Positions 1 through 33,677 of a stretch of DNA of 34,314 nucleotides are shown piece by piece (positions within the stretch are counted from its first letter, which is position 1; each line of letters starts with the position of its first letter). The notes beneath the pieces were generated by a model, which did no database searches, was not told where the DNA came from, and was given only the letters and a program-made list of their open reading frames with translations. A program made the translations under genes and the position numbers. This DNA is from an uncultured Gemmatimonadota bacterium (GTDB lineage: Bacteria; 4572-55): contig CAYOLL010000004.1 of NCBI GenBank assembly GCA_964404765.1, positions 1 through 34,314 of the forward strand. Direction: 5' to 3'.

Positions 1-215
1 ATGGATTGTTCAAGTTCCAGCCGAAGAAATCCATTCAATTGCTGTTGAATTTTTTTCAACTCGCGCCGGTTGTGCGCGCCCTGCAATAACTCCATTTCAA
101 TAATTGCGTTGATGTACAGATCGAAACCCTGCATTCGCAGCTTGTTTAAGCGATCGCTATTCCCGTTAATGTCATCAATGATAACGCAGGTATCGCATAA
201 CAGCATGTTGCTCAT
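1..215 (-). CDS. PIN-domain toxin (VapC-like), partial. The C-terminal part runs off the left edge of the window.
   Basis: Manual minus-strand translation from the ATG at 215 gives MSNMLLCDTCVIIDDINGNSDRLNKLRMQGFDLYINAIIEMELLQGAHNRRELKKIQQQ..., in frame through position 1. The N-terminal hDT-V-IID and the later E-MELL acidic motif are typical of PIN/VapC. A GAGG RBS lies upstream. The start overlaps the upstream antitoxin stop by 4 bp (ATGA). Confidence 0.65.
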   Translation of the reverse strand, partial: MSNMLLCDTCVIIDDINGNSDRLNKLRMQGFDLYINAIIEMELLQGAHNRRELKKIQQQLNGFLRLELEQS

Positions 216-4120: not shown

Positions 4121-4280
4121 ATTGACTCCTTCATTCATTGCCCTCTTCAATTTTCGGCTTGCAGCATGGTGTCACTTTGGACTCCGACATACCGGCATAA
4201 TGGCTTAACCGAAACCCACGTTTTTTGAAAAGCATTGGTATCTTCAATAAAAATATAAAATTTTTTTTAAAAGTCAACTT

Positions 4281-6722: not shown

Positions 6723-8435
6723 ATGGGAAATTTTTTACCAAATCAAATGCGTACGTGTGATACGACGCGGCTACCCGTTTGTCTGACGGCGCAGCTATTT
6801 ATCCGCGCTCATGCCGTATTTGCCGTTGTCTATTTACTGGTGGGCGCGATTGCCGCGCTACTATTGGCCTTGACGCGCTGGTCGGCGGTCCATCTGCTGC
6901 CTGCCGATTGGTACTATCGCATTTTGACTTTACACGGTATCAACATGCTGATTTTTTGGATGCTATTTATGGAAGTAGCGATTCTCTATTTTGCCAGCAC
7001 AACGCTGCTTAACTCACGCACTTTTTCCAAACCAATGGGTTGGGTCGGTTTTGTGCTGATGGTTGTAGGCTCGCTCATGACCGATTGGATGATTTTAACC
7101 GGCAAGGGCGATGTATTAATGACCTCATACGTGCCGCTCAAAGCGGATCCGATGTTCTATCTGGGCATCATTTTGGTAGCCGTCGGTGTCTTGCTGGGCA
7201 TTGTTAATTTTTTTGGAACACTCTATATCGCTAAACGGGATCATACTTATACCGGTTCGGTGCCATTAGTCACTTTTGGCGCATTGGCCGCGGCCATTAT
7301 CGGCGTGCTGACCATTTTGCATGGCGCGGCCATCTTGATCCCGACAATGCTCTGGTCAATGGGTTTGATGCCGGTCCCGGACGCGGGCGTTTATCGTCTG
7401 ATCTGGTGGGGACTGGGCCATGTTTCGCAGCAAGTAAATGTCTGTGCGATGGTTTCCGTGTGGTACTTTCTGGCCACGCTGACTGTCGGCGCGCGCCCGC
7501 TAAACGAAACCGTCTGTCGCACGGCTTTTATTCTCTATATTTTATTCATCAACTTAGCTTCGGCGCATCATTTATTGGTCGATCCCGGTGTTGGAGCTAC
7601 CTGGAAAATATGGAACACTTCCTACGCTATGTACCTGGCTGTATTAGCCTCGCTGATTCACGGCTTCACCGTGCCGGCATCGGTCGAAGTGGCCCAGCGC
7701 ATGAAAGGCTACACTCGCGGCATGTTCCAATGGCTGACTTCCGCGCCGTGGGGCGATCCGGGCTTTTCCAGCTTCTTCCTGTCGCTGACAATTTTTGGTT
7801 TTATTGGTGGTATTACCGGAGTGACGCTGGGCACTGAGCAAATTAATATCATTGCTCACAATACGTTGCGTATTCCCGGTCACTTCCATGCCACAGTGGT
7901 CGGCGGCTCAACGCTGGCTTTTATGGGTTTAGCCTACTATGTGGTTCCGCTGATTTTTCAGCGTGAGTTTTATTTAAAGGGCGTTGCTCGGGTGCAGCCG
8001 TACATTTTTGCCGCCGGTATTGTTATGCTGTCATTCGGGATGTCCTTTGCCGGTTCATACGGTGTGCCGCGCCGCCATTATGATGTTGATTTTACCGGGG
8101 CGAATATTCCGGCCGGTTTCGACTCTGCCGCACACTTTATGTTAGGGATTGTCGGTATTGGTGGAACTCTGGCTTTCATTGGGGCATTGATTTTTGTTCT
8201 GCTGGTGGTGGCGGCTGTCTTTTTTGGTAAATCCAATGTCGGTCAGCCCATGTCCGCCTGGCAATCTGCGGATAATCTGAAAATGAACGCCAACGTGCTG
8301 TCCCGGCCAATTGATGAGGCCATTGCGCATAAAGTTCCGGGTACTGTCACTTTAACGCTTGTCTTATTGGTATCTTTTGTGGTATACTATTTTGCTAACT
8401 GGAAAGCGTTGGCAGATGTCTGGTTTGTGCGGTAA
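6723..8435 (+). CDS. Heme-copper oxidase superfamily subunit I (B-family-like; putative NO reductase catalytic subunit)
   Basis: It has 12 or more TM helices with a helix-II His (LHGINMLIFWMLFMEVA), the helix-VI CuB His in WWGLGHVSQQVNV, the helix-VII HH in ASAHHLLVDPG, and the helix-X heme ligands in GHFHATVVGG. The 570-aa size is close to ba3 subunit I. Gln replaces the Tyr of the GHPxVY motif. An AGGAGG RBS precedes it. Confidence 0.9.
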   Translation: MGNFLPNQMRTCDTTRLPVCLTAQLFIRAHAVFAVVYLLVGAIAALLLALTRWSAVHLLPADWYYRILTLHGINMLIFWMLFMEVAILYFASTTLLNSRTFSKPMGWVGFVLMVVGSLMTDWMILTGKGDVLMTSYVPLKADPMFYLGIILVAVGVLLGIVNFFGTLYIAKRDHTYTGSVPLVTFGALAAAIIGVLTILHGAAILIPTMLWSMGLMPVPDAGVYRLIWWGLGHVSQQVNVCAMVSVWYFLATLTVGARPLNETVCRTAFILYILFINLASAHHLLVDPGVGATWKIWNTSYAMYLAVLASLIHGFTVPASVEVAQRMKGYTRGMFQWLTSAPWGDPGFSSFFLSLTIFGFIGGITGVTLGTEQINIIAHNTLRIPGHFHATVVGGSTLAFMGLAYYVVPLIFQREFYLKGVARVQPYIFAAGIVMLSFGMSFAGSYGVPRRHYDVDFTGANIPAGFDSAAHFMLGIVGIGGTLAFIGALIFVLLVVAAVFFGKSNVGQPMSAWQSADNLKMNANVLSRPIDEAIAHKVPGTVTLTLVLLVSFVVYYFANWKALADVWFVR

Positions 8436-8956: not shown

Positions 8957-9044
8957 TCTGTGAATTCGAGACTCGGTCAAAATTTTTTAATCAGTTTAGT
9001 GATAAATGGATATATTTTTCCTTTATCTGCAAAGCGAGGCTCCT

Positions 9045-9992
9045 ATGAAAATCATCGAAAATATACAGCAATTCCTGATTGGCTGGCGCTTTCCGGTGAT
9101 GATGGTGTCCATGCTGCTTTTTTTCAGCCTGGAGTTATTTATTGTCCTGTTGATTCCGGCTTCGAGCGGGGCGGCGGCACAGTTTGCCGAAGATTTTAAA
9201 ACCTGGTGTTTTGGCTATGACCCGGCTACGGGTAAACTGGAATGGGGTTATGTGATTATGTTTCTGATTCAGCCCTTGATGATGTGTGGCGTAATCATCA
9301 TGGTTTGGATCAAGCCGCTCAAGGAAGTCTGGCAAGATCGTCCGACTCAGACGGTGCCGTATCTGGTCAGTTCGGCTACGATTGTGCTGGCCCTGGGTGT
9401 AAGCCTGACGCTGATGGTTGGCGCGGATGCCCGCGCTGCCGATGAGCAATTGCCTTTTCCGGCTGAGGCGCTGCGCACGGAACTAAACCCGATCCCATTT
9501 TCGCTGATGAATCAGGATAGCGCCGTTGTGAGCCTGGAATCGTTAAAAGGCCGGGTGACGCTGATTACGGCAGTTTACGCCCGCTGTGGCTATACGTGCC
9601 CGATGATTTTGGCGCAAACGCGTCGGGTGATGAGCTCCCTGACGCCACAGGAATTGAAAGAGCTTTCGATTCTGGGCATCACGCTCGATCCGGAGCATGA
9701 CGATGTCGCCGTGCTGCGGGAAATGGCCGCCGGTCAACAAGTCAAGACGCCGCTGTTCCATTTTCTAACCGGCGAATCAGCCTATGTTAACCAAACCCTT
9801 GATATGTATGGTTTTGCCCGCAAGCGCAATCCGGAAACCGGGGTGATCGACCACGCCAATCTTTTTTTATTAATTGATCGGCAGGGCAAAATCGCTTATC
9901 GCTTTTCGATTGGCAAACGGCAGGAAGATTGGCTGGTTCACGCCATACGCATGTTGATTAAAGAAAAAAAGGGTTCGGGTGTCGCGGCATGA
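9045..9992 (+). CDS. SCO1/SenC-family copper chaperone with an N-terminal polytopic membrane extension
   Basis: The C-terminal thioredoxin-like domain carries YARCGYTCP (the CxxxC copper site) and a downstream DHANLFLLIDRQG (conserved His). The N-terminal 140 aa contains 3 to 4 hydrophobic helices. A GAGG RBS precedes it. Confidence 0.8.
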   Translation: MKIIENIQQFLIGWRFPVMMVSMLLFFSLELFIVLLIPASSGAAAQFAEDFKTWCFGYDPATGKLEWGYVIMFLIQPLMMCGVIIMVWIKPLKEVWQDRPTQTVPYLVSSATIVLALGVSLTLMVGADARAADEQLPFPAEALRTELNPIPFSLMNQDSAVVSLESLKGRVTLITAVYARCGYTCPMILAQTRRVMSSLTPQELKELSILGITLDPEHDDVAVLREMAAGQQVKTPLFHFLTGESAYVNQTLDMYGFARKRNPETGVIDHANLFLLIDRQGKIAYRFSIGKRQEDWLVHAIRMLIKEKKGSGVAA

Positions 9993-10053
9993 CCTGAAAA
10001 ACTCGTGACAGGCCACAAAGGCACGAAAACACTAAGTTTCACGAAGTTTGTTA

Positions 10054-12207
10054 ATGTTTTATGTCTTCAGCGCTTATGTTTGTGAACAATTCACCCGGAA
10101 AATTATGCGCCCACGCCCCATCATTACCCATGAGGATATACCACAACTAAATGCAACGCATGTGCGTGATGCCCGGTCCGAACCACCGGTGCGTGGCGAA
10201 GCTCTGCTGACCCAATTAGATATGCAGTTTACCCGGCTAAACCGATGGGTTAAGGCTGTCGTCCCTGATGCACTTAATCCGTTTACGCAGATGGGCGCCG
10301 TGGCGGATACGATGTTTATCGTTGCCATTATTAGTGGTATCTTGCTGTTGTTTTGGTATAAGGCCAGCGTGTTTCAGGCCTATGATTCGTTAGAAGCGAT
10401 GCGGCATAATTGGCCGGCGCAGTTAGTGCGCTCAATCCATCGTTATAGTTCGGACGGTTGTTTGCTCTTTGTCATTTTACATGCATTGCAAATTCTGGGA
10501 GCACGCAAGTTTGGCGGTGTGCGCTGGCTGGCCTGGGTTTCCGGTGTGGCGCTGGTCTGGCTGTTATGGGTAGATGGCTGGACGGGTTATTGGCTGGTTT
10601 GGGACGTGTCGGCGCAGCAAGTAGCGCTTGGCACCGCGAAATGGTTAGATGTGCTGCCGATTTTTGCCGACCCTTTATCACGTTCTTTTTTAACTGACGA
10701 CAGCGTCAATTCGTTATTCTTTTTTGTGGTGTTTTTTATCCACATGCTGCTGCCGCTGGTCATGGGTGTGGCGTTGTGGATTCACATTATGCGCTTAAAT
10801 GATTCGCATTTTCTGACCAATCGCAAGTTGACCGGCATTTTGCTTACGGCGCTGGTAATGGTTTCGCTTCTCTTTCCGGCTCTATCGGCTGAACAAGCGG
10901 CCATGCAAATCGCGCCACAATCTTTCAAGATGGATTGGTTTTATTTATTACCGCTGATTGTGACGGATCGTTTACATGGCGGTGGTTTGTGGTTAGTTAC
11001 CGTCATTTTTACGGTTGCTTTTTTTAGTGTGCCGTGGGCTATGGCCCGACAACGATCCGCGCCGGCAAAGGTCAATCCGGAACGCTGTCACGGCTGCACA
11101 CAGTGTTTTCAGGATTGTCCATTTAACGCGATTACGATGCGCCCGCGTGATGGTAAGCATCCGGTTGTATCCTATATTGATCCGGATAAGTGCGTGGGCT
11201 GCGGCGTGTGCGTCGGCTCGTGCGATCCCTGGGCAATTGAGTTTGATGCCCTGCGGCAGATGGATGTGCGCAAATGGATTCGTCAGCGGCTCAAGATCGA
11301 AACTGCTGATCCGCGTCACGTTGCTTTTGTTTGCGCCGATTCTGCCGGGGCGGATTTACAACTGAATGCCGCCGGGGAGTGCGCTGAATTGACTGGCTAT
11401 CGAATCGTGCCTGTGCCGTGTGTAAGCTGGCTGTTTGCGCCCATGATCGCGCAAGTATTGCGGGCCGGTGTGCCGGGGGTGATGGTTGTGGGTTGCGGAC
11501 CAAACGAAATTTGTCGTAAAGGCAACCGTTGGACGGCCGAACGTCTGGCTGGAACCCGCGAGCCTTATTTACTGATGACACCTTCTGCGGCCGCAGATCA
11601 TGATGAAAGTGATCTGGTTGGGCGGATTCGATATATACGCTACGATCGATCGCAGAAGGCGGAATTTATTGCCGACGCGCAGGATTTTCGGGCCGGAAAA
11701 GTGACTGCGCCAAAAGTGTCCGCCCGGCGTTGGGCAAACGTGGTGGTTATTTTTCTTATCTTAGCTGGGGCGATCATTACATTGAGTCGCATGCCCTATC
11801 GTCCGCCACAGTTGGAAACCGCGGAATTAGTGATCTCTTTCAAACATCCGGGGCAGTTGGTCGAGCAGGTTACGGCTTCCGCTGCCGATCAACAAAATAT
11901 ATTGCCGCACATGCGTGGCGGCGCCTCTAAAAAGAGGTTACGTACGGCGGTTCGTTTGCAGGTATTCGTCGATGGCGCAGAAAAAGTCAATCAAACACTG
12001 GCTCCACGCGGTCTATTTAGCGATGGCGCTAGCATTGCCATTGAAAAAATACCGCTATTGGAAGGTCGCCATCTGGTTAAAGTGCGAGTAGGCGATTCGG
12101 CTAATCCGGATGAATGGCAATTTTCTGATTCGCGCGAGCTGGATTTTAAAATAGCAACGCGACGTGTAGTTTTGTTCAGCAAATCGGCGGGATTTAAATG
12201 GTATTGA
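10054..12207 (+). CDS. Multi-domain membrane electron-transfer protein: di-heme cytochrome b (N-terminal), 2x[4Fe-4S] ferredoxin, an MvhD/FlpD-like domain, a TM helix and a C-terminal about 150-aa domain
   Basis: Two H-x13-H pairs in TM helices ([16 protein letters not shown] and [16 protein letters not shown]) match the cytochrome b heme bL/bH ligands, alongside an R..H..A...F motif. [12 protein letters not shown] and [12 protein letters not shown] are two 4Fe-4S motifs. [10 protein letters not shown] ... [37 protein letters not shown] resembles the methyl-viologen-reducing hydrogenase delta subunit domain. The start is uncertain: the ATG at 10054 and the ATG at 10105 both lack a clear SD, and the TTG at 10048 is also possible. 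Confidence 0.7.
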
Positions 12208-12359
12208 TCAAATAGATTTGCACAAGTTTCAAATTTTAGCGCACTTGCGTGCTAATAATGGACATGTAAGTCTATTATTATATTTTGTTTGCTACTTTAA
12301 TTCACAACGCGAGTTTGTGAGCTCGCACAATATCAATCTAAGGGAAGGAGTACGGGTTA

Positions 12360-13846
12360 TGGGAACAAAAAAGGGGTTGTTTTTCGGAACAGCGATGGTG
12401 ATTTTGACGCTTTCGTTATCGCTTATTTACTCATGTAATGAGCAGCAATCGGCACAATCAAAGTCAAGTGGGAGTAGCAGTAAAGCAGACAATGGGCTCG
12501 TTAAGTTGGAGCCGGTGGCCGTACAAGGCGAGGAAGTGGCAGTCTTAACCGATCCACCGATGGTGCCGCCACCGATTACGCGCACCAATGCGACAAAAGT
12601 GATTGTCAATCTGGAGGTTATTGAAAAAACAATGCGGATTGCCGACGGAGTGATGTATACTTTTTGGACATTCGGCGGGACGGTGCCTGGCAAGTTTATC
12701 CGCGTGCGTGAAGGCGATTTTGTAGAGTTTCACCTGAAAAATCATCCGGAAAATAAGTTGCCGCATAATATTGACTTACATGCGGTTACGGGACCTGGCG
12801 GCGGCGCAGCCTCCTCATTTACTGCCCCGGGGCACGAGTCGGTCTTTTCGTTTACGGCGATGAACCGCGGCTTGTATGTCTATCACTGCGCGACGGCGCC
12901 GGTAGGTATGCATGTGGCCAACGGCATGTATGGCTTGATCTATGTTCAGCCAAAGGAAGGCTTGCCGCCGGTTGACAAAGAATACTATGTTTTCCAAAGC
13001 GATTTTTACACCAAAGGCGCGTATGGCGCAGCCGGTCTGCAACCCTTCAGCATGGAGAAAGCTTTGCAGGAACTGCCGGATTATGTGGTTTTTAACGGCT
13101 CCGTCGGTTCGACAACCGGCGATAAGGCGATGACCGCCAAAGTCGGCGATAAAGTGCGCCTTTTTGTTGGCAATGGCGGCCCGAATATGGTCTCTTCCTT
13201 CCACGTTATTGGCGAAATTTTTGATAATGTTTATGAAGAAGGCGGCGATCGGGTTAATCATAACGTGCAGACAACAATGGTTCCGGCGGGCGGCTCGACG
13301 ATCACCGAATTTGTGTGTGAAGTGCCGGGCACGTTTATCCTGGTTGACCATTCCATTTTCCGGGCGTTTAACAAAGGCGCTATCGCGATGCTAAAAGTCG
13401 AAGGCGCTGAAAATAAAACGATCTACTCCGGTAAGCAGGATGATCGTATCTATCAAGGTGAAGGTTCTGCGGTGCAGGAAATGCCGGGGGGAGCTGTTGT
13501 CGAAGCGCCCGCAGCCAAGACCAAAGAGGAGCGTATGGAGCGCGGACAAAATGTGTATAAATCCATTTGCATTGCCTGCCATCAGGCCGAAGGTCAGGGT
13601 ATGCCGGGCGCATTCCCGCCATTGGCCGGTTCGGACTTCCTGAATGCTGACAAGAACCGCGCCATCAAGACGGTAATGAACGGCTTGGAAGGTAAGGTGA
13701 CGGTTAACGGCGCGGATTACAACGGCATCATGCCCAAGCTGAACCTGACAGATGAAGATATTGCCAATGTTGTTACCTATGTGCTGAATAGCTGGGGCAA
13801 TAGCGGCGGCGAGATTACGCGAGATGATGTGAAGAAACTGCGGTAG
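12360..13846 (+). CDS. nirK: Copper-containing nitrite reductase (NirK) with C-terminal mono-heme cytochrome c domain, lipoprotein
   Basis: The lipobox is LSLSLIYSC. The type-1/type-2 Cu ligand motifs are [13 protein letters not shown] and [18 protein letters not shown]. The two-cupredoxin length fits NirK. The C-terminal [19 protein letters not shown] is a CxxCH heme c site. A GGAAGGAG RBS precedes it. The ORF-track start at 12218 is a TTG far upstream. Confidence 0.9.
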
Positions 13847-13870
13847 TATTGTTAAAAATTAGTCGTGCTA

Positions 13871-13912
13871 CAGATACCCACTTTCTTCATGGAAAGTGGG
13901 TATCTGTGTTTG
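13871..13912 (+). terminator. Rho-independent terminator after nirK: CAGATACCCACTTTC-loop-GAAAGTGGGTATCTG followed by TGTTTGG
   Basis: A perfect 15-bp stem followed by a T-rich tract, read directly. Confidence 0.6.
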
Positions 13913-14141
13913 GTAGAGCCAGAATTGCTCTCGCCCTCTTTGAACGCCTTCGCAAACTGCTTCCGAATACACATTTCCTGACAAGTTAGACCGATCTTAT
14001 CATCCCATCCGAATTTTCAAGTGTATTAGCCAAAACGCTTGACAAGTTTTTGCCGCGTATGCTATACTTGAACGGTATTTAACTTTTCGTACAAATCGAC
14101 ATATTTTTTTATTCAGCGGGGCTAAAAATAAAGGACGCCAC

Positions 14142-17100
14142 ATGCAAGACCTTGAAAGTCTTAAAAGCAAGGCTGCTTCAGAGCTGACGCAAGCGCTGCC
14201 TTTGGTGGATAAATCTGTTGAAAAAAGCTCACCCAAAAGATTGGACGCAACGGCCTATAGCGCTATGCCGCCGGCGATTGCCGAAATGTGCCAGCGTTAT
14301 GGTCGCAAGAAAAATGCGGCGACTCGTCTGGAAGTTTTGCTGCAATGTTTTGACGCCCTACAGATTCATGTTACCTGCTTGCTGTTGGCTGATTATTTGA
14401 ATAGCGCCGGTGTTGATACCGACTTAAACGATTTACTAAGTGACTATCTGGCCGAGTCTGAAATCAGCGCTATTTTTTTCTATATACTGCTGGAACAATA
14501 CCGTGCCAGCAATAGTGGCCATTTCTTTGCCCGTCAGAAAAATCAACTAATGCCCGCCGTGCCATTTGAAGATTGGGAAATTGCTTATAAAAACATCAAT
14601 TTTTCGAATGCGCAACAATCCCTTGATCTTTTATTTCCCCGCATCAGCAAACAATTTGAGCTGTTTCGATTTTTAAACCAGTATCCTTTGTTTGTCGTGC
14701 GCGCCTATGATGAAGAGCGGGATGCCTATCAGGTGGATTGGTTACTGCAAAACAAAAGCGACTGGATTTCTTCAAAAAAAGATGAGCCGCTTATTCTCAA
14801 CCGACTTTATCTGGCAGACGAGGCGGGTTCCCTGTCGTTGCACCCGTTATTGATTACAGCCAAGTGTCCGAAGTGCCAGCAGGAGCACATTTTTTATTTT
14901 CAAAAAATTAATCGTGAAGCGCTTGTCTATTTCAATTTTGAAGATTTTCATACGCTCTCCATAACGGATGTCTCCGTTATGAGTGAACTGGGGAATACGC
15001 TGGCTCAGAAGAAAGCATACAGTCTGGCAGTACAATGCTTTGAAGTTATTTTGCGTATTCGACCCAATGACAAAACCGCCCGTTCGGGGTTGTTTGCGAC
15101 CCATAATCTGTATGGCGTGCAGCTTTTTGAGGCCAAAAAATTTGAGGAGTCCGGTGAGCAGTTTCGTTTAGCCTTAGTCTTGCGTGCCGATGTCAGCCAG
15201 GTTTATTTTAACCTGGCTACGGCGTATCGGAAGAGCAAAAATTTTAGCGGCGCACTGGAAACAATTGATCGACTATTGGAACGGCAGCCGAGTCTTACGA
15301 AAGCCTTGGAAGCCAAAGCGCAGATTCTGGAAGAGTACGGTCAGCATGACGAAGCCTTAAAAATCTATGAGACCGCCTTAAAATCCGATCTGGCATACAA
15401 ACGTATTTTTACTTCCTGGCGACGGTTAAGCGACCAAATTGCTATGCCGCAAGCTACGCCGGTTAAAAAAGACGACAAAAAAGCCGATAAAAAAACCGAC
15501 AAGCCGGAAAAGAAGGAAGATAAAAAATCGGCATTAGAAATTTTGACCCGTGATGTAATGGAATACGTTAAAAAAGAAGCCGTTGAGCCGATTTTTGGAC
15601 GGGAAAAAGAATTGGGCGAGATTATGGAAATTCTGACCTGCCATAATAAAAACAACGTCATACTGGTGGGTGAGTCCGGTGTTGGCAAATCGGCAATTGT
15701 CGAGGAGTTGGCCCGTCGGGTGATCCGCGAGGATGTGCCGCAGCGCCTCAAGGGTAAGCGCTTGCTGGAGCTTAGCACAACCACGCTGGTGGCCGGAACA
15801 AAGTTTCGCGGCGAATTGGAAGAGCGAATTCTAAGTTTAGTGGATGAAATTAAGAGTGATGGCAGTATTATTCTTTACATTGACGAGATATCCAGTATCG
15901 TTCACGGCGGTTCCTATCGCGGCAGTACTGTGGAAATTTCCGGTGTTTTAAAGCCCGCCCTGGCGCGTGGCGAAATCCAGTGCATCGGCACGGCGACACT
16001 CGACGAATATCGTCGCAATATCGAAAAAGATCAGGCACTGGAACGGCGCTTTCAAATTGTGCATGTTGACGAGCCAAGTGTTGATGAAACATTGTCGGTG
16101 CTAAAAATTACGGTTAACAAGTTTGAGACTTTCTACGGTGTGCATTTTGATGATGAAGCCATGCGTTTAGCAGCAGAGTTTGCCAAAAATTTTTTGCGGG
16201 ATCGGGCCTTGCCGGATAAAGCCCTGGACTTGCTTGATCGCGCCGGGGCAAGTGTGGCCTATGCCGCACAAAACGACCCAAATATTCCGCCCTATGTGAC
16301 GCCGGACGATATGATTCGGATTGTATCCAAGATCAGCGGTGTGCCGGTTAATAAAATCGACCAATCCAATGCTGAGCGCTACCAGAACATGGAGTCTATT
16401 TTGCGTCGCAAAATTGTCGGTCAGGATGCGGCAATTGATCAGGTTTGCCGTGTTATCCGTACGAATCGCATGAAGTTTAAGTTGAATCCCAGCCGTCCGG
16501 AGGGTGTTCTGCTTTTTCTTGGCCCTACCGGGGTAGGCAAGACCGAGCTGGCCAGAATGCTGGCTGAGTTTCTGTTTGGCAGTGTTGATGACATGATTCG
16601 GATTGATATGTCTGAGTTTTCTGATCGCATTGCCACGACCAAGTTGGTTGGCGCTGCGCCGGGTTATGTGGGTTACAATGATCCTAATCAATTGACGGAT
16701 CGGGTGCGAAACCACCCTTATACGCTTGTTTTATTAGATGAAATTGAAAAAGCTGATTCGCAGGTTCTCAATATTTTTCTGCAGGTTTTTGACGCCGGTC
16801 GCCTGACGGATTCCAAAGGCCGCGATGTGGCTTTTAATCACACAACCGTTGTGATGACATCCAATATTGGTTCCGAGTTGTTTTTTAAAACGACTATCGG
16901 TTATGGGGATAATCGCAACGGCGGTTCTTCCGGGAAGGCTGTGGCGGTTTCCACGCAGCAACTGATGCGGCAGCTTCAGAGCCGGTTGACCCCGGAATTT
17001 TTGGGTCGGATCGATGAAATTGTTGTCTTTAATCCGCTGATGCTGGACGACGCCAAAAAAATTGTTGAATTGCGGCTTAAGGCGATTCATGACCAATTGC

Positions 17101-17318
17101 ACTTGGAGGAAAAAACGCTTTTTCTGTATGATTCCGCGCTTGAATTTTTGGTGGAAGTCGGTTTTGATTCGGAATTTGGCGCGCGCAATTTGGACAAGAC
17201 AATTCGTCAATATTTGTTAGACCCGTTGGCGCGGAAAAAGCTGCAGCCGGATTGGATGTCCGTCCACGAAATCAGCGTCGCGCGGCAAGGGCAGAATTTA
17301 CAAATTATTATGAAGTGA
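14142..17318 (+). CDS. ClpA/ClpC-like double AAA+ unfoldase with a novel about 470-aa N-terminal TPR-containing domain and a Lys/Asp-rich linker
   Basis: D1 carries GESGVGKSAIVEELARRV, Walker B ILYIDEISSIV and TKFRGELEERI. D2 carries VGQDAAIDQV, LFLGPTGVGKTELARMLAEFLF, IRIDMSEFSD and LVLLDEIEKADSQVLNIFLQVFDAGRLTDSKGRDV. It has no long M-domain, so it is ClpA-like rather than ClpB-like. A possible ClpP-docking IGY tripeptide lies in D2. The N-terminal region has TPR-like repeats and a KKDDKKADKKTDKPEKKEDKK linker. An AAGGA RBS precedes it. Confidence 0.8.
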   Translation: MQDLESLKSKAASELTQALPLVDKSVEKSSPKRLDATAYSAMPPAIAEMCQRYGRKKNAATRLEVLLQCFDALQIHVTCLLLADYLNSAGVDTDLNDLLSDYLAESEISAIFFYILLEQYRASNSGHFFARQKNQLMPAVPFEDWEIAYKNINFSNAQQSLDLLFPRISKQFELFRFLNQYPLFVVRAYDEERDAYQVDWLLQNKSDWISSKKDEPLILNRLYLADEAGSLSLHPLLITAKCPKCQQEHIFYFQKINREALVYFNFEDFHTLSITDVSVMSELGNTLAQKKAYSLAVQCFEVILRIRPNDKTARSGLFATHNLYGVQLFEAKKFEESGEQFRLALVLRADVSQVYFNLATAYRKSKNFSGALETIDRLLERQPSLTKALEAKAQILEEYGQHDEALKIYETALKSDLAYKRIFTSWRRLSDQIAMPQATPVKKDDKKADKKTDKPEKKEDKKSALEILTRDVMEYVKKEAVEPIFGREKELGEIMEILTCHNKNNVILVGESGVGKSAIVEELARRVIREDVPQRLKGKRLLELSTTTLVAGTKFRGELEERILSLVDEIKSDGSIILYIDEISSIVHGGSYRGSTVEISGVLKPALARGEIQCIGTATLDEYRRNIEKDQALERRFQIVHVDEPSVDETLSVLKITVNKFETFYGVHFDDEAMRLAAEFAKNFLRDRALPDKALDLLDRAGASVAYAAQNDPNIPPYVTPDDMIRIVSKISGVPVNKIDQSNAERYQNMESILRRKIVGQDAAIDQVCRVIRTNRMKFKLNPSRPEGVLLFLGPTGVGKTELARMLAEFLFGSVDDMIRIDMSEFSDRIATTKLVGAAPGYVGYNDPNQLTDRVRNHPYTLVLLDEIEKADSQVLNIFLQVFDAGRLTDSKGRDVAFNHTTVVMTSNIGSELFFKTTIGYGDNRNGGSSGKAVAVSTQQLMRQLQSRLTPEFLGRIDEIVVFNPLMLDDAKKIVELRLKAIHDQLHLEEKTLFLYDSALEFLVEVGFDSEFGARNLDKTIRQYLLDPLARKKLQPDWMSVHEISVARQGQNLQIIMK

Positions 17319-17794: not shown

Positions 17795-19357
17795 CTACCA
17801 TTCCCGTTGCGGGTCATTCCAGTAAAAGCGCGTCGCCCCGCGATCCGTGCTAAACCACACATAGTTTCCATCAATAAACACATCTTTGACGAAATTGCTT
17901 GGCAGCCCGGCCGGAGTTACGGTATAGCTGCTTTTAATACTGCCGATCTGTTCCTGGGATATATACTTGTGCCAGGCATCCTGTTTTTTGGAATAGCGCC
18001 ACACGCCCAGATCCGTTGCTAACCAAAGATTTGATGAGTCTACCGCCATTTCCTGAATACGGGGCAGCCGTGTGTTGTAGACTTCCGGAATTTTGGTGAT
18101 AAATGGCCACCAATCCCATTCTTTATAAAGCAGATCGTAAATTACCAGGCCGTCCGGCGTAGCAAAATAGACCATCTCATCATCTTTATCGACACAAACG
18201 CTCAGGATTTCCCCCCGCAGTTGTCCCGCCGGAGCTGACATTGAGAGCCAGGCGGTATCACCCAATGTGTATTGATAAACGCCATCACGAGTGGCAGCCC
18301 AAATGGTTTTGCGGTGGACAGCCAGATCGTTGATTGTCAGGTAGCTTAGTTTGGAGTTCTCAACTTTGCCATGAGTCGCGACCTCGCCTTTGCTATTCAG
18401 CTTAAGCCAATTTAAGCCGGTGTCTAACCCAACCCAAATGTAATTTTCCACCAGGGCTAATGCGCGCACGTCGTTGCCGGTCAGGCCATTAAAAGTATTG
18501 AAAGTTTGCCAGCCGTTGCGAATTTTGTTGAAGCGAGCCAAGCCTTCCGGCGTGGCCAGCCAAACATCGTCTGCGCCATTGACCATATCAACTACGGTGG
18601 CGGTTGGAAATTTGCGCGTATGACGGGCTTCAACATACGTGAAAGTGTTTTTTATTTCATCATAAATGGTTAAACCACGATACTCATCCGATTTTTCGCC
18701 GGCGCCGCCAAACCAAAGTGTGTGATCTACCCGTATCATGCAGTTGACCTGATCATCCAGGAGACCAAAGCGCACTTTTTCGAACCATTTACTGAAGGTG
18801 TCATATTTAAAAATACCTTCGCCGTCGGTGCCAACCCATAAATATTGGCCACGCGTATCCTCGAGCCAGGCGGTTGCCTGATGGTTGCGTAAGTACTCAT
18901 CCATAAAACTAATGTCATGCACGAATGGATAGCGCAAAGCCAATTTGTTATTGTCGTAGTCGCCGCCAAACCAGCGCAGATTTTCAATTGGCAGATTGCC
19001 GTATTTCCATTCGTGTGTACTTTTTTCAAACCAGATATAGGGCAAATCGCCAGGCTGCAGTGTGCTTGGTTCAATTTCCAGATACAGCCAAAATGCGCCG
19101 ACGGCAATCCGCCGGATCGGTCGGGGCAGCCAAAACGCCTGCCAGTTTTCTTTAAGTTCGTCATAAACCGACAAACCGCCCCATGTGGTAAAGTACATGT
19201 AGTTGACTTCGGTGGCAATGGCCGTCACGTAGCGCTGATTATTGAAGACCTGCCAATCACGCGGCTTGTAGTATTCGAAATAAGTCTGGGCTGCAACGGA
19301 AGATACCGTGCAGGTCAATAAAGCGATATATAGCGTTAAACATTGCCTGATCTTCAT
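17795..19357 (-). CDS. Secreted beta-propeller protein with two-component-regulator-propeller (Reg_prop)-like repeats
   Basis: It has a signal peptide (MKIRQCLTLYIALLTCTVSSVAAQ). Repeated W-x-G/A-T-x-x-G-x-x-x-Y/F motifs occur: LWVGTDGEGIFKYD, VWLATPEGLARFN, IWVGLDTGLNWL, IWAATRDGVYQY, VYFATPDGLVIYD, LWLATDLGVWRY and VWFSTDRGATRFYW. An AAAGGA RBS precedes it. Confidence 0.7.
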   Translation of the reverse strand: MKIRQCLTLYIALLTCTVSSVAAQTYFEYYKPRDWQVFNNQRYVTAIATEVNYMYFTTWGGLSVYDELKENWQAFWLPRPIRRIAVGAFWLYLEIEPSTLQPGDLPYIWFEKSTHEWKYGNLPIENLRWFGGDYDNNKLALRYPFVHDISFMDEYLRNHQATAWLEDTRGQYLWVGTDGEGIFKYDTFSKWFEKVRFGLLDDQVNCMIRVDHTLWFGGAGEKSDEYRGLTIYDEIKNTFTYVEARHTRKFPTATVVDMVNGADDVWLATPEGLARFNKIRNGWQTFNTFNGLTGNDVRALALVENYIWVGLDTGLNWLKLNSKGEVATHGKVENSKLSYLTINDLAVHRKTIWAATRDGVYQYTLGDTAWLSMSAPAGQLRGEILSVCVDKDDEMVYFATPDGLVIYDLLYKEWDWWPFITKIPEVYNTRLPRIQEMAVDSSNLWLATDLGVWRYSKKQDAWHKYISQEQIGSIKSSYTVTPAGLPSNFVKDVFIDGNYVWFSTDRGATRFYWNDPQREW

Positions 19358-21405: not shown

Positions 21406-23394
21406 TTAACGCAACAACACAGTTCGCGCAGTCATCAAGCCGGCGTTTGTTTGCAAGCTCCAAAAATAAATACCATTAGCCAGTTGACGATTATCCTGTG
21501 ACTGTCCATTCCAGGACAGATTATGCTCGCCGGGTGAAAGCAGTTCTTGGTCAAGAATCGTGCGCACCATGCGACCGGCGCTGTCATAAATCCGCACGGT
21601 TGCCGTTGAAGCCGCCGGCAAGTAAAAAGCCAGCGTGGTTTGATCGGAAAACGGATTCGGATGGCTTGCTTGCAAACTCGGGCGGGCGGCCGCATTTTCA
21701 ACAAATACATCGTGCTCGGGTGATTGCCAATTGCGTCCATCGGCAAAGAGCGCTTCTATAAAATAGCGATAGGCAAAGCCGGATGACGGGTGATCTTCAT
21801 ACATGACGGTTGTTGGCGCTAAAATCGGTGATATGCCAGAATAATCTGCCGCGGGACCAATGCCTTGCCGATGAACACGAATGCCGGTAATATGGGTCAA
21901 ATCCGACAACTGCCAGGCAAGCTTGACGCCCGGACCATTCATCTGCGCCTGAAAAGAGAGCAATGTTAAAGCGGCTACGCGCTGATAGTTTATCGCCGCC
22001 ACGACATCAATGATACCCCAGCCGAGCAGCGTATCCGGGTGGGTGGCCTGGCTGGCGGTCATCATCAGCGCTTCGCGGATTTGCATCATCGTCCAATCGG
22101 GATGGGCTTGCAAAAGCTGGGCGGCGCAGCCGGCCACTAACGGCGACGACAAAGACGTTCCGCTAAGATTATAATAGCCAATTGCACTGCGGGCGCGGGC
22201 GCAGCGCGTACTAACGCCACGAGCCATAACCTCCGGTTTAAGCCGGCCGTCGGCGGTTACCCCGTCAGAGTTGAAACTCGCCCTGGCGCCGGTTGCATCG
22301 ACCGCTCCAACGGTTAAGATGCTGTCGGCATCGGCCGGCGCGCCCAGAAACGGGTGGGTCGGGTCGCCGCCGCTATTACCCAGCGAGACGCAGATGACGA
22401 CGCCAAGACCGGCGGCAATATCGGCGGCGCGGGTGATCGGCGCAGTATCGCCGTCCATTTGCGCATAAGTATACCAGTCCAGGTAGCTCAACGAGCTATT
22501 GGCCACATCTGTGCCCAGGCCTTCCGCCCATTCAATGGCCGCAATCCAGTAATCTTCTTCAACCGGTGTTTCGTTGGGTAAGTCCTCGGTTTTGGCCAGA
22601 ATGAAGTGGGCTTTATAGGCCGGACCGATGAGCTTTCCGTCGGCATAACCACCCAAAGTTGACCAGGTCGCCGTGCCATGATCGTGTTGACCGCTCACAT
22701 CGTTGGCCTCATTTTGCACATTGCCGTCATTGAAAATAAAATCATGCTGCGCCAGTAAACGCCCTTCGCTGAGAATGGCGGCAAAGGATTCGTGGGTCAG
22801 ATTGTAGCCCGTATCAAGCATCGTAACAATCACCCCAGCGCCGTTATAACCAAGCCGATGGGCATTGACGGCATTGATCTGATTCAGTTGGTCAAATGAC
22901 AGGCCGTAGTTTAAATCTGCCGGCGTGGCCATGACTTCAGCAGGTGTTTCCACTAATTCCGGCCGTTTGAAGCCCAATACCGGCTGAATGCGGCTGACAA
23001 AGGGCAGAGCGGCGATTTGAGCCAATTGCTCCCGGGTTGTTACCAGGCTGATGGCATTTAACCACTTACTGGTTTGGACTATCCTTGCGCCGGTTCCAGC
23101 CAACCGTGCCGAATAATCCGCCGCCACCGGCAGGTCAAGCTGCGAAACACCCGGCTTTTGACCGCGTTTATGCCGTCGTTCAATCGCGCGATCAGTCAGA
23201 CCTAATTCGGCTAACGACATTGTGGCAGCGCTCGCTTGGGCATTTTCTGTGCTCTTGTCCGTTAAAAAAACCCAGACTTTCAGCTCTGACTGACCCGTCA
23301 GACGTTCATAAACCCGGCTGTCGATTTTTGACGCCATGCCGGATGAAACCCAGCCCAGAATGGCAATAAGAACGGCTGCTACTGTAATTCGCAT
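21406..23394 (-). CDS. Subtilisin-family (S8) serine peptidase with C-terminal T9SS sorting domain
   Basis: It has a signal peptide. The catalytic triad motifs are VIVTMLDTGYN (Asp), HDHGTATWS (His) and LSGTSLSSPLVAGCAA (Ser). The C-terminal NPFSDQTTLAFYLP...VRIYDSAGRMVRTI...WNGQ..ANGIYFWSL... is a T9SS type-A sorting domain. Confidence 0.85.
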   Translation of the reverse strand: MRITVAAVLIAILGWVSSGMASKIDSRVYERLTGQSELKVWVFLTDKSTENAQASAATMSLAELGLTDRAIERRHKRGQKPGVSQLDLPVAADYSARLAGTGARIVQTSKWLNAISLVTTREQLAQIAALPFVSRIQPVLGFKRPELVETPAEVMATPADLNYGLSFDQLNQINAVNAHRLGYNGAGVIVTMLDTGYNLTHESFAAILSEGRLLAQHDFIFNDGNVQNEANDVSGQHDHGTATWSTLGGYADGKLIGPAYKAHFILAKTEDLPNETPVEEDYWIAAIEWAEGLGTDVANSSLSYLDWYTYAQMDGDTAPITRAADIAAGLGVVICVSLGNSGGDPTHPFLGAPADADSILTVGAVDATGARASFNSDGVTADGRLKPEVMARGVSTRCARARSAIGYYNLSGTSLSSPLVAGCAAQLLQAHPDWTMMQIREALMMTASQATHPDTLLGWGIIDVVAAINYQRVAALTLLSFQAQMNGPGVKLAWQLSDLTHITGIRVHRQGIGPAADYSGISPILAPTTVMYEDHPSSGFAYRYFIEALFADGRNWQSPEHDVFVENAAARPSLQASHPNPFSDQTTLAFYLPAASTATVRIYDSAGRMVRTILDQELLSPGEHNLSWNGQSQDNRQLANGIYFWSLQTNAGLMTARTVLLR

Positions 23395-23436: not shown

Positions 23437-26400
23437 TCATTTTGACTCATGAATTTGCGTTCGGCCGACTAAGCGCGTAGACTCACGGCTTAGTTTATTC
23501 AGGGTAAGTTGCTTATAAGCGCCGGCAATATTTTTTTGGGCGCGAATATTGGTTGGGTCATGCCGGACAATTTGCTTTAGGGTAGCGATATAGGCCGGCA
23601 AATTTTGCTGACGACAATAAGAAGCAGCTAACAGACTGAGAATTTCCGGATCGTCTTCGGCATCTTCCAGGCTAAGCGCTTTTTCGATCAGCAAATCATA
23701 ACGGCCTTGCGCCCGGTGAATATCCAATATCTGGGCGATTTGAATACGGTCATCCGGCGTTTGCAGGGCCTGAAGCGCTTCATCGTAGCGTCCCAGGCGC
23801 TTATACAGCTCGGCCAAACCGGCGGGATTATCCTCCTGATGCAGCAATTGGTTGTGCCAGCCGGCCTCGCGAATTTGACGAATTTTACGATAGGTGACTT
23901 GCTGTTGCGGATCAAATTTGAGTGATCGGGCAAATTCAATTTCGGCTTGCTTGTCATTGCCCATCAAACTATACGTGTAGCTTAAATCCAAATAGAGTTC
24001 AACCATGAGGTCGCCGCTATGCACCAATTTTAAACCGGCCACAAAATAATTTTTGGCTTTTTCATAATTCTCCAGTCGTAAATACAATTCGCCGATAAAG
24101 CTGTGCAAAACAGCGCTGCGCGGTTGAAATTGCAACAAATTCTCGAGCCGCCGGACAGCGTTTTCCACTAACCCCGCCCGCTGCCAGGCTACCGACCAAT
24201 AGGTTTCGCAAGCGCGCGGGTAATCACCGGCAAAAGTAAGCATATCCCCAAATGCAAACAAAAATGGCGGCGAATCCGTGTAGTCCTTCTCCATTTGCTC
24301 GAAGTACGTGATTACGTTGGTCACTTCTTTGCGATCAATTTCCACCAATTTTTGCAACTCTTGTAAAACAGCGGCCAGATTTAAAGTTACGCGGTAACAT
24401 TTTATCAAAGTCCAGTGTGGTTCCAATAGCTTATCGTCCCAGCTTAAAATAAGTCCGCATTTTTGGATGCAAAAGTTTACTTGCGTACTATCAAGGCTCA
24501 AAATTTCTTCGATAAGTCGGTTTGCGTCCAAAAAAGCTTTTTCATGGATAAAAATATTGAGCAGTCGCTGCCGCGCGTCGATATTGGTCTCTTCACGCTT
24601 GATGATGTGACGCAGCGCAGCGACGATAAAATGCTGCAATTGGATATCTAAAGCATAGGCCTGATCCAGCCGCTCCATCGCCCGATCAAATCGACTTAGC
24701 CGAATGAGCGTATCAGCATAGGCTAAATGAAGGCGGGCATTCTGATAATACATTGGCAATAGTTGTTCGTAGCGTGGCGGAATTTGCACGGCCAGCGCCA
24801 GGTTCAATTGGACGGCTTTGATGTAGCTCTGGATAGCGCGATCTATCTGGTCCAGGATTACATATAAATCGCCCAATGCTAACGCGACCTGAGCATCCGT
24901 CAAATTTGTCGCCTGCAAGTTTTCGAACAGCGGGCGCAGTTCCGCATGGCAGGCCGGATCCAGACGCGCCTGAAGCAAATATTCTTGCAAGGCCGTACTC
25001 AGATGGCCTTCTTTTAAATAAATATCGGCCAACAGTTTACGAGAGAGCGCGTGCGTTGGATTAATATCCAGCACTCGCTTTAACTGCGTAATAATATCCG
25101 GGGCAAATTCCGGCCGCAAGGCGTATACTTTTTGAAGGATCAAAGTCGCTTCGACAGTTTCGCTTTGTTCCAGCAGGCAATGCACCTTAATCAGATAAAA
25201 ATCGGCCTGATCATTTTCCGGCAAGGCGCGTATGGCCTCATCGCACGTTTGTGCCGCATGTTCCAGTAATTCATTGCGCTGATAGATTTTAGCAAATCTG
25301 ACGCGCAGAAATTTATTCGTAGGCTGTTTCTCCAAAATGGTATAAAAATATTGAATAACGTCCTTCAGCGGCATCAATTTTTGCAGTTCCAGGGCATCAA
25401 GGGTTTCAGCCGCTTTTTCGATTTGGCCAAATTCCAGATAAATATCCAGCATTTCTTTTAATACCGGCAGATAATTGGGCTTTTTGAGCAGGATATCGTT
25501 AAGTCGTCCCAAGACCATGTCAAGCTTTGAATCATCCAGATAAGCCACTTCTTTATAGACCAGGGCAGCTTCGTCAAAAGCCTGTTTGACCAGAAAAGCC
25601 TCGGCAATGGCTAGCCGGAGCAGGCTATCTTCCGGACGCGATTCCAGAAAGCCGTGATAAAAAGGAACAACCCAATCTGCTTGTTGCGGATGAGTTTGCA
25701 AATAGGCATCCAGCTCAGCCAGGATGGCGCCAAACTCATCCGGTTTTAAGCGTAGAACAGCAGCGGCATGATCCAACCCTTCTTCCAAATTCCCGGCGTC
25801 CAGATGAATTTGCATGATGCGTAAATTGACATCTGCGGCCACAGCTTCCTGTTTCGCCAGCGACCGAAGCTGATTGAGCACGTCTGGCAAAGTCGCCGGC
25901 GAAACCACGTATAAATGATGTAAAACAACTGCGGTTTCCGCAAATTTACCTTGCTTAAATAATAGGTAGGACACCGCATTATGGGCAGGGACACTTTCAC
26001 GGTTTTCGTGCAAAACTGTTTGTAGTTTTTCACTAATCGCATCCATTTGTAACGGGTCGCGGGTAAATATGATAGAGTAGGCGCGAATGGCACCTTCCAC
26101 CATCTTTTCGCGCACTAAGGCATCGCCAAGCGGATAGTTTAGCGCGGTGGCCTGGGGAAAGTCAATCTGCAAGCTGCGACAGGCCTCAATAACCAAAATG
26201 TTTTGATCCATGTGACGATTTAAAATGTCGGCTAATTCAGCGACCGCCTCATCGACTTGATTTTGGGCCAGATAAAGCCGGGTCAGCATGATATTTAAAC
26301 CGTGCCGATCCGGCAGAGCCGCCTTAATCTCCTGAAGCATTTGAATCGCAATAGGTCTGCCCTGGGGGAAAGTCTCGCCCAATTTCATTAGTAAATCTAT

Positions 26401-27225: not shown

Positions 27226-27254
27226 GCGACCCTCGTTTAAAGTGTGACAGGAGT

Positions 27255-27307
27255 AGCAAACTTCAATTTGCAAGTAACCTGCCCGGACTTGCAAACTGAA
27301 GTTTGCT
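27255..27307. other. 21-bp inverted repeat AGCAAACTTCAATTTGCAAGT-N11-ACTTGCAAACTGAAGTTTGCT (one mismatch). It lies between the Uma2 gene stop and the TPR gene start and forms a strong stem-loop in the minus-strand transcript.
   Basis: Read directly. No U-tract follows it on the minus strand; the TPR RBS follows about 20 nt later. Confidence 0.5.
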
Positions 27308-33610: not shown

Positions 33611-33677
33611 AAAAGCTCTTTCACTCCAAGATAGACCGACAAATATTCTATTCCTCCAAAACTCCACCACTCCGGCC

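Follow-up and report, generated by a model that had tools for sequence, protein, structure and literature searches.

A rare Clp/Hsp100 protein with a HEPN-like, β/CxxC and TPR module in place of the usual N-terminal domain

A single gene in the 34,314-nt window (the whole stretch of DNA that was analysed) encodes a known machine, the two-ring Clp/Hsp100 motor, with a new part, a very rare N-terminal module. We consider it moderately probable that the product is a functional, hexamer-forming class-I unfoldase of a rare, deep-branching subfamily, coupled to ClpP, recognizing its substrates in cis and working independently of adaptors; of these attributes, hexamer formation, ClpP coupling and substrate recognition by the N-terminal module are what we infer from sequence. 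In the proposed mechanism, a motor of ClpA-like topology (D1–D2, no M-domain) would thread substrates through the KFRG pore loops of D1 and the GYVG loops of D2, with ATP hydrolysis in both rings, and would pass the unfolded polypeptide to ClpP, docked by six IGY loops. Substrates would be chosen in cis by the N-terminal module, which would replace the ClpS/MecA-binding Clp_N domain. This module would join a catalytically dead HEPN-like bundle to a small OB-like β-domain, in which CxxC would form a knuckle, and to a four-TPR peptide-binding solenoid, and would hang over the D1 pore on a disordered charged tether of ~28 residues. Adaptor independence is predicted because the protein lacks both the N- and the M-domain of ClpC, through which adaptors dock and the resting state is controlled.

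Specificity in Clp/Hsp100 proteins comes mainly from N-domains and separate adaptors, and earlier N-terminal solutions (the ClpX zinc domain, the ClpE zinc finger, ClpV and the N1 domain of ClpG) each revealed a new targeting principle. The architecture described here would add a further solution, a multi-part predicted recognition module (HEPN-like, β/CxxC and TPR) carried in cis by a motor without the ClpC regulatory domains. With the module fused in cis and both of those domains lost, the protein may give mechanistic studies and engineering a naturally occurring unfoldase that needs no adaptor and possibly works with ClpP. Its extreme rarity, with three full-length members, gives it small general biological weight.

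Table 1. Features of the Clp gene, its upstream region and the encoded protein
Feature	Residues (aa)	Position (nt)	Strand	Basis or detail
Perfect 16-bp hairpin (ACAGATACCCACTTTC / GAAAGTGGGTATCTGT)		13870..13907	+	6-nt loop; read from sequence
Sigma-70-like promoter, TTGACA-18-TATACT		14039..14068	+	extended -10 TG; consensus match only, 11/12 hexamer positions
Shine-Dalgarno, AAGGA		~14131-14135	+	
Complete CDS, 1058 aa		14142..17318	+	single ORF, frame open throughout, no stop or frame change
N-terminal tail, mostly disordered	1-35	14142..14246	+	AF2 pLDDT 28-34; short predicted helix aa 3-13
HEPN-like helical bundle	36-182	14247..14687	+	
β-rich OB-like subdomain	183-275	14688..14966	+	9 strands (aa 1-480 model)
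CPKC in β-subdomain	242-245	14865-14876	+	
Four TPR motifs with C-terminal capping helix (nine helices)	276-434	14967..15443	+	Pfam, AF2
Charged tether (11 K, 5 D, 2 E, 3 P)	435-462	15444..15527	+	predicted disordered, pLDDT ~30
12-nt tandem repeat AAAAAAGCCGAC x3.2		15465-15502	+	within tether; encodes KKxD x3
AAA+ D1 with lid	463-716	15528..16289	+	Pfam; alignments with ClpA, ClpB, ClpC
D1 Walker A, GESGVGKS	510	15669-15692	+	read from sequence
D1 pore loop, KFRG	554		+	read from sequence
D1 Walker B, ILYIDE	577	15870-15887	+	read from sequence
D1 Arg finger, ERRF	634		+	read from sequence
AAA+ D2 with D2-small domain	717-1058	16290..17315	+	Pfam; alignments with ClpA, ClpB, ClpC
D2 Walker A, GPTGVGKT	794	16521-16544	+	read from sequence
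D2 pore loop, GYVG	841		+	read from sequence
D2 Walker B, LVLLDE	862	16725-16742	+	read from sequence
IGY tripeptide, D2 surface loop	919-921	16896..16904	+	alignment position of ClpP-docking motif
D2 sensor 1, TSN; Arg finger, GRID; sensor 2, GAR	1013 (sensor 2)		+	read from sequence

The AAA+ motor and the ClpP question

Both AAA+ modules are intact, as a sequence-only reading of this DNA had held: the Walker A/B pairs, pore loops, arginine fingers and sensor 2 are all present (Table 1). Pfam matches above the cut-offs cover AAA (D1) at residues 506–612, AAA_lid_9 at 646–714, AAA_2 (D2) at 785–960 and ClpB_D2-small at 968–1038; with two AAA+ modules, all motifs, AAA_lid_9 and D2-small, the protein belongs to the class-I Clp/Hsp100 ATPases. 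The catalytic motifs are kept across the three family members, except that the D1 Walker B of the orthologue P0003 reads IDD instead of IDE, a hint that D1 hydrolysis is perhaps dispensable.

The closest match of the AAA+ body is ClpC. Alignments spanning both rings reach E 3e-150 against ClpC structures (S. aureus ClpC) and 1e-111 against ClpA; identity to ClpC is ~39%. All next-best database matches beyond the family are ClpC, the ClpP loop is of similar length and a neighbour-joining tree puts the family beside the ClpC set; ClpA, ClpB and ClpC are nonetheless closer to one another than the family is to any of them. ClpC carries Clp_N and a UVR/M-domain coiled coil (nearly all top ClpC matches have both PF02861 and PF02151), whereas the window protein has neither, and the equivalent of ClpC 414–466 is missing. 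ClpC of the Firmicutes/Bacteroidota type is MecA-dependent, with Clp_N and the M-domain serving MecA/McsB docking and the resting state.

ClpA shares the two AAA+ rings without an M-domain, and its NCBIfam model (TIGR02639) matches residues 440–1032 in one stretch. Identity to ClpA is only 32–35%, however, and the score of 590.6 bits lies below the equivalog cut-off of 993. The ClpP loop of the window protein is ~11 residues longer, and its N-terminal region spans 462 residues against ~165 in ClpA, which has Clp_N; without that domain there is no ClpS-binding site. The statement that no ClpB M-domain is present is borne out. D1 directly joins D2 (query residues 716/715 align to S. aureus ClpC 413/467), and the junction between flanking columns measures 15–17 residues in the family, against 14 in ClpA, 43 in ClpC and 104 in ClpB, whose alignment with the query leaves a gap of ~87–125 residues at the long M-domain.

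The possible link to ClpP lies in a D2 surface loop. Alignment, which had been proposed as a way to look for a ClpP-binding loop, places the tripeptide IGY opposite IGL of E. coli ClpA, AGF of S. aureus ClpC and [VLIYF]GF in 114 of 115 ClpC relatives ([VLI]GF being the usual ClpC form), at a site where ClpB is gapped. IGY is kept in all three family members. The published ClpP-docking consensus is (L/I/V)-G-(F/L) (PMC8745299), and the Tyr at the third position falls outside it. The Clp motor is likely to work together with the ClpP protease. Genes for ClpP, ClpS or any further Clp protein are absent from the window and from the orthologue contigs, so the partnership draws no support from gene context.

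A rather unlikely alternative, though the strongest, would make the protein a remodeller or stand-alone disaggregase that works without ClpP and resembles ClpG, ClpL or ClpV; aggregates or one particular complex would be bound by the N-terminal module and dismantled by the motor without degradation. Stand-alone Hsp100s with extra N-terminal domains are generally known (ClpG, ClpK and ClpV), those of ClpG binding substrates. The missing clpP neighbour and the non-consensus Tyr are consistent with such a role, as are sizeable NCBIfam scores for ClpB, ClpV, ClpG and ClpK, all of them sub-threshold. ClpB, with which the class-I double-ring body is shared, gives the highest raw score, 638 bits in two stretches against a TIGR03346 cut-off of 1232. 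ClpV (TssH) reaches 530.6 bits against 885 (TIGR03345), with no T6SS genes in the window or the orthologue loci, and ClpG and ClpK reach 501 and 476 bits against 1900 (NF033607 and NF033606), far too low for membership. The conserved I-G-aromatic tripeptide, deleted in ClpB, also argues against a remodeller, as does the absence of an M-domain; ClpB, ClpG and ClpL carry M-domains that are used in disaggregase function. The gene had been read as a specialised disaggregase or degradation factor: the IGY at the ClpP-loop site and the missing M-domain favour the second half of that description.

The N-terminal module and its relatives

The sequence-only reading had the usual N-domain replaced by about 470 residues with TPR repeats and a K/D-rich linker. 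The replacement itself stands: Pfam finds no Clp_N (PF02861) or UVR (PF02151) match anywhere in the protein, TPRs are present and residues 435–462 are highly charged. The TPRs are limited to residues 276–434, and the TPR-like label does not suit the first ~275 residues, which hold a HEPN-like bundle and a β-domain instead and have no Pfam match at all over residues 1–265. A divergent Clp_N domain was also considered and is rejected, with no match to that N-domain family by sequence or structure.

The TPR region exceeds the Pfam cut-offs (TPR_2 56.8, TPR_1 47.4 and TPR_8 38.2 bits over residues ~278–415), and AF2 models its helices at 277–434 with pLDDT ~90. The tail (residues 1–35) shares 21–26% identity with the orthologues. 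The tether is 64% K/R/D/E and occupies the alignment position of the N–D1 linker of ClpA, whose own N-terminal module is likewise flexibly linked. Orthologue linkers are shorter and K/E-rich; the K/D composition seen here is a lineage-specific 12-nt repeat expansion and not a conserved feature.

The N-terminus and its predicted role are most economically read as a built-in adaptor or recognition module, because it is flexibly tethered where ClpA and ClpC have their N-domain and because TPRs are peptide-binding scaffolds. TPR scaffolds recruit substrates to proteases elsewhere, as in NlpI-Prc, where the TPR protein is an adaptor; here the TPRs are fused in cis to the Clp ATPase, and the parallel is one of analogy only. 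Proteasomal ATPases (PAN/Mpa) carry OB domains over their pore. In the window protein the OB-like domain is set off from the ring by the TPRs and the disordered tether, so a PAN-like OB ring collar is not possible.

Residues 36–275 constitute a module of their own, in two parts and not described before. An exhaustive phmmer search with residues 1–270 revealed distant relatives (~10 proteins) in which the module is fused to Ser/Thr kinase, receiver, cNMP-binding or STAND/ORC-like ATPase domains, or stands alone. These relatives retain an Rx4-6H motif, in the form R-[ND]-x3-5-H (RN...H or RD...H) where the last long helix begins, and in several of them Ex3[KR] lies upstream of it; both elements belong to the published HEPN signature (PMC3710099). 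A β-domain with CxxC invariably comes after the HEPN-like bundle, and the combination is not described in Pfam, NCBIfam, PADLOC or PDB. What comes to light is an undescribed HEPN-like/β-barrel module, and those versions of it that look catalytic are coupled to kinases, receivers, cNMP sensors and STAND ATPases.

The Clp-fused members differ from these relatives and from the HEPN superfamily at large in lacking both R and H. At the Rx4-6H position the query reads PFEDWEIAY, and the aligned stretch in the query and both orthologues has the form (F/Y)(E/D)(E/D)W(E/D) in place of the catalytic motif. If residues 36–182 are a HEPN domain, they would form a non-catalytic one. At E<=10, Pfam gives no HEPN model for any module member, only spurious zinc-ribbon matches at the CxxC, which in the query is CPKC with a semi-conserved His/Cys downstream. 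Foldseek searches of PDB and viral structures gave no significant match (the weak fold matches of the β-domain include the OB domains of PAN and Mpa), and a module profile searched against PDB sequences gave a best E of 1.2. The AF2 models were built on 5–6 sequences, with pLDDT 50–64 in four of five models of the isolated module. A word-index search with residues 1–470 returned only generic TPR proteins, TPR and low-complexity words dominating it.

A second alternative is a signal-gated or conflict-related protease in which the former HEPN plus OB-like module senses a nucleic acid, a nucleotide or an invader cue, and the unfoldase acts as effector or destroys a specific RNA-binding or toxin protein. 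We regard it as improbable. The fused relatives of residues 36–275 do carry signalling- or conflict-type domains and retain the RNase-type motif, and HEPN domains are typical effectors of conflict systems (PMC3710099). Nucleic-acid binding, suggested by the OB-like and CxxC features, is something we infer purely from them, and the loss of Rx4-6H excludes an RNase role for the Clp-fused module. In the distant relatives, PADLOC matches were confined to the kinase, receiver and cNMP parts and never fell on the module, and the gene contexts of those relatives are uninformative. No defence genes adjoin any of the three orthologues, whose neighbours, of housekeeping or respiratory function, vary from locus to locus.

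As doubtful, in our view, is the related proposal that a ClpP-coupled unfoldase is gated or targeted by the ex-HEPN and OB-like/CxxC module, which would sense a ligand (RNA, a nucleotide or a modified protein) and would have come down from a family of kinase-, receiver-, cNMP- and STAND-coupled HEPN effectors. If true, the protein would be an AAA+ protease activated by a signal or directed at an RNP, and regulation of that kind has to our knowledge not been described for any Clp ATPase.

Family, authenticity and locus

The favoured reading of an adaptor-independent, ClpP-coupled unfoldase concerns a very small family. Only three full-length members, all from uncultured bacteria, occur among the 5.8 billion protein clusters searched: the window protein (P0014 in the protein collection), P0015 (57% identity) and P0003 (52% over 1020 aa), all with the same collinear domain order. 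Scores within the family exceed 1150 bits, and the next matches, ordinary ClpC at ~500 bits, fall below half of that. A single-protein scan of GTDB genomes found none, and an alignment scan found only a contig of Ca. Cloacimonetes bacterium 4572_55, which is P0003. That label, together with the proteins bearing T9SS sorting domains (Por_Secre_tail) that are encoded in the window, suggests an FCB-group bacterium as the source. Among metagenome contigs, an N-half alignment gave no match and a TPR-end alignment only two generic TPR matches at 35% identity. No TPR-Clp or HEPN-Clp fusion was found in the literature.

An assembly artefact, in which a TPR protein gene and a truncated ClpA/C gene were joined by a frameshift in the A-rich linker (15.45–15.53 kb), is effectively refuted and scarcely credible: that DNA does contain error-prone A6–A7 runs and the 12-nt repeat, but the frame is open throughout, and two orthologues from unrelated samples and assemblers (independent contigs in ENA, JGI, NCBI and Logan, with P0003 on three independently assembled ones) have the same continuous architecture, with conserved sequence flanking the linker in all members (RIF(T/N)(S/A)WRR ... 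KKE(E/D)KK(S/A) ... LT(R/L)D). The suspicion of a fusion of two ORFs, raised earlier as a reason for caution, can be set aside. The start codon is backed by an N-terminal peptide, M-x-[DE]-[LY]-[ED]-x-L-K-x-K, kept in the orthologues.

A conserved gene neighbourhood is ruled out: comparing context among relatives, as had been suggested, showed that the neighbours of the three orthologues are unrelated to one another. Architecture kept at 52–57% identity beside differing neighbours indicates that selection targets the fusion as such and not a partner in an operon. The Clp gene is predicted to be stand-alone, with its own putative promoter ~75 nt 5' of the ATG and a flanking hairpin directly 3' of the upstream nirK-cytochrome c gene. 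This hairpin is a possible terminator between the two genes; a terminator scan did not call it, because its T-run is weak.

Architecture and family of the Clp fusion

The architecture of the Clp fusion is observed: an N-terminal part of 462 aa precedes two AAA+ rings, D1 and D2. Pfam recognizes the motor domains and TPR repeats (see table) and finds neither Clp_N nor UVR, nor any match in aa 1–265; the sequence-only reading of a ClpA-like unfoldase with its usual Clp N-domain replaced is thus correct by both Pfam and alignments. Aligned with ClpA and ClpB of E. coli (from NC_000913.3), the protein shows the full catalytic set: Walker A (GESGVGKS, GPTGVGKT), Walker B (ILYIDE, LVLLDE), pore loops (KFRG, GYVG), Arg fingers (ERRF, GRID), sensor 1 (TSN) and sensor 2 (GAR). 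Both AAA+ modules are therefore intact, as had been read. The D1–D2 junction carries no insertion: between flanking columns the family has 15–17 residues, vs 14 in ClpA, 43 in ClpC and 104 in ClpB, and ClpC residues 414–466 and ~87–125 ClpB residues lack a counterpart, which bears out the reported absence of a ClpB M-domain.

Features of the Clp fusion and of other genes in the window
Feature	Position	Strand	Details
Perfect hairpin	13870–13907		16 bp; between upstream nirK-cytochrome c gene and Clp fusion gene
Promoter, strong	14039–14068	+	sigma-70-like, TTGACA-18-TATACT; consensus match; serves Clp fusion gene
Ribosome-binding site			AAGGA; Clp fusion gene
Clp fusion gene	14142–17318	+	1058 codons, one open frame
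Tandem repeat, 12 nt	15465–15502		AAAAAAGCCGAC x3.2; encodes KKxD x3 core of charged linker
Disordered tail	aa 1–~35		AF2
Helical bundle	aa ~36–182		AF2
β-rich subdomain	aa 183–275		AF2; invariant Cys in CPKC/CKRC/CEKC
Nine TPR-type helices	aa 277–434		AF2, pLDDT ~90; four repeats plus cap
TPR repeats	between aa ~278 and 415		Pfam
Disordered stretch	aa 435–462		AF2; first D1 helix next
AAA (D1)	aa 506–612		Pfam
AAA_lid_9	aa 646–714		Pfam
AAA_2 (D2)	aa 785–960		Pfam
ClpB_D2-small	aa 968–1038		Pfam
Rrf2 regulator	3668–4150
COX1	6723–8435
SCO1/SenC	9006–9992
719-aa fusion	10048–12207	+	cytochrome b N-terminal domain, two 4Fe-4S motifs, FlpD/MvhD-like domain
nirK-type multicopper protein	12218–13846		fused to cytochrome c
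Reg_prop β-propeller	17795–19357	-
T9SS C-terminal sorting domain proteins	21406–23394, 32276–33724	-	two; one subtilase
All-TPR protein	23437–27294	-	1285 aa
Tandem Uma2-family paralogues	27331–27987, 27997–28656	-	putative, restriction endonuclease-like
726-aa protein	28683–30863	-	N-terminal membrane helix, long Ala/Glu/Lys-rich coiled coil

Searching 5.8 billion clustered proteins with the full-length sequence yielded the window's own protein (P0014, in NCBI on an 85.8-kb contig) and, counting those that match it in length and in the order of their parts, just two relatives: P0015 (1043 aa, 57% identity) and P0003 (1049 aa, 52% identity over 1020 aa; OQY28151.1, 'Candidatus Cloacimonetes bacterium 4572_55'). 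With one fragment, the family thus has three full-length members. In the Cloacimonetes-labelled P0003 (loci L003/L004/L005), the D1 Walker B reads IDD, not IDE, and Walker A reads GDPGAGKS; judging from these motifs, D1 may hydrolyse ATP less well in this lineage.

Among PDB sequences, ClpC hexamers come closest (E 3e-150), followed by ClpB, Hsp104 and ClpA. The family's AAA+ body forms a long, deep branch, monophyletic in 50/50 bootstraps, with identities of 32% to ClpA, 37% to ClpB and 39% to ClpC (for scale, ClpB–ClpC 50%, ClpA–ClpC 43%), and the protein scores beneath the curated NCBIfam cut-offs of all named Hsp100 families. It resembles ClpA in topology and ClpC in sequence but is a member of neither; the N- and M-domains of ClpC (adaptor docking, resting state) are both missing.

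The N-terminal module and its distant relatives

Two AF2 models (aa 1–480, mean pLDDT 74.9; aa 30–272, pLDDT 81.8, pTM 0.82) concur on the predicted N-terminal layout, and a conserved short N-terminal peptide backs the annotated start. The earlier description as TPR plus a KD-rich linker holds for aa 276–462 and fails for aa 36–275, modelled as a HEPN-like bundle and an OB-like β-subdomain. The linker (64% charged residues; 11 K, 5 D) aligns with the N–D1 linker of ClpA. Given the repeat DNA, and the shorter K/E linkers of the orthologues without the 12-nt expansion, it is read as a flexible tether that has expanded specifically in this lineage.

An exhaustive phmmer search with aa 1–270 against 1.84 billion representatives returned eight matches only: P0003, P0004 (a fragment, 195 aa long, of a fourth family member) and six weak ones (E ~1e-4). 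Profile search added three proteins, and cluster look-up P0133, a longer form of P0012. In distant proteins the ~230-aa module stands alone or C-terminal to another domain: a Ser/Thr kinase (P0005, P0010, P0011), a receiver domain (P0006), a cNMP-binding domain (P0009) or a STAND/ORC-like ATPase (P0133). The relatives P0005, P0006, P0008–P0013 and P0133 (loci L011–L014) come from other metagenomes.

The module falls outside all Pfam, NCBIfam and PADLOC models. Its members share 'P-x-P-I-A' and 'LADY' helices and, in the C-terminal β-segment, the pattern 'vYL.D...LsL.PL.i...CPxC...f...Y.sf..(G)H'. In distant members R-(N/D)-x3-5-H opens the last long helix, with Ex3(K/R) upstream in several, matching the published HEPN signature (PMC3710099); the three Clp fusions have (F/Y)(E/D)(E/D)W(E/D) in place of R and H. 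HEPN proteins are listed with the figures HI0074 7.5, HEPN toxin 6.9, TTHA0636 6.9, Csm6 6.8, Sacsin HEPN 6.5, AbiA 6.2 and LsoA 5.8. By analogy, the kinase-plus-HEPN-like arrangement would echo Ire1 and RNase L.

N-domain swapping is a familiar theme among AAA+ unfoldases, so the Clp fusion is no new kind. Unusual are its module make-up (HEPN-like, β/CxxC and TPR), the joint loss of both ClpC regulatory domains and its extreme rarity; literature searches turned up no account of a Clp ATPase that carries TPR or HEPN domains. The protein, which comes from uncultured bacteria, is very probably a functional Hsp100 whose N-terminal module is genuinely new. It offers a clean, testable natural case of predicted cis-encoded targeting and points to a HEPN-like module not described before.

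Probable ClpP coupling, proposed mechanism and gene context

The alignment search for an IGF/L-like ClpP-binding loop, suggested earlier, finds IGY on a D2 surface loop. This column is IGL in ClpA, a deletion in ClpB, AGF in S. aureus ClpC and [VLIYF]GF in 114 of 115 ClpC relatives; IGY is unchanged in all three family members. The docking consensus is (L/I/V)-G-(F/L) (PMC8745299), of which the Tyr, by sequence comparison, appears to be a conservative variant. Coupling to ClpP is probable.

Partner, ligand and activity we infer as follows. The protein would be a hexameric unfoldase, adaptor-independent because the ClpC N- and M-domains are both absent. Clients would be recognized by its own tethered module, threaded through D1 and D2, and most probably handed to ClpP through the IGY loops. 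The TPR groove would be the likeliest peptide-binding site, and the ex-HEPN/OB part may serve to bind another determinant, protein or nucleic acid. As a whole, this statement is slightly more plausible than implausible. A ClpP-independent remodeller or disaggregase would fit the non-canonical Tyr and the lack of a nearby clpP gene, but the conservation of the tripeptide and the absence of an M-domain make it unlikely.

The gene has its own expression signals (see table), and a separate promoter serves rpsT downstream. Comparing gene context in relatives, as had been proposed, reveals no common neighbours: nirK and rpsT flank the window gene, accA and a PatA_N gene lie upstream of P0003, and P0015 is preceded by an RnfC-like gene and one for a BMC shell protein. 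Since the neighbours are unrelated among all three orthologues and the gene carries its own signals, selection acts on the fusion protein itself. A signal-gated or conflict-related protease, which the module's domain partners in other proteins would suggest, draws no support from gene context or PADLOC and is quite improbable. An artefact joining two ORFs, envisaged in the sequence-only reading, has a negligible chance, being refuted by orthologues with the same order of parts. A frameshift at 15.4–15.6 kb is likewise excluded, because sequence is conserved on both sides of the linker (RIF(T/N)(S/A)WRR ... KKE(E/D)KK ... LT(R/L)D) and the orthologues lie on independently assembled contigs (three for P0003, two for P0015).

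Other genes in the window

COX1, SCO1/SenC, the nirK-type protein, the Rrf2 regulator and the 719-aa fusion form a respiratory cluster. The all-TPR protein, the two T9SS-sorted proteins and the Reg_prop β-propeller, taken with the Cloacimonetes label of P0003, suggest that the DNA stems from a member of the FCB group. The 726-aa protein is SPFH/flotillin-like by eye, Pfam giving no match at E<=0.01, and the marked AT skew (-0.42) at 29–30 kb is due to its gene.
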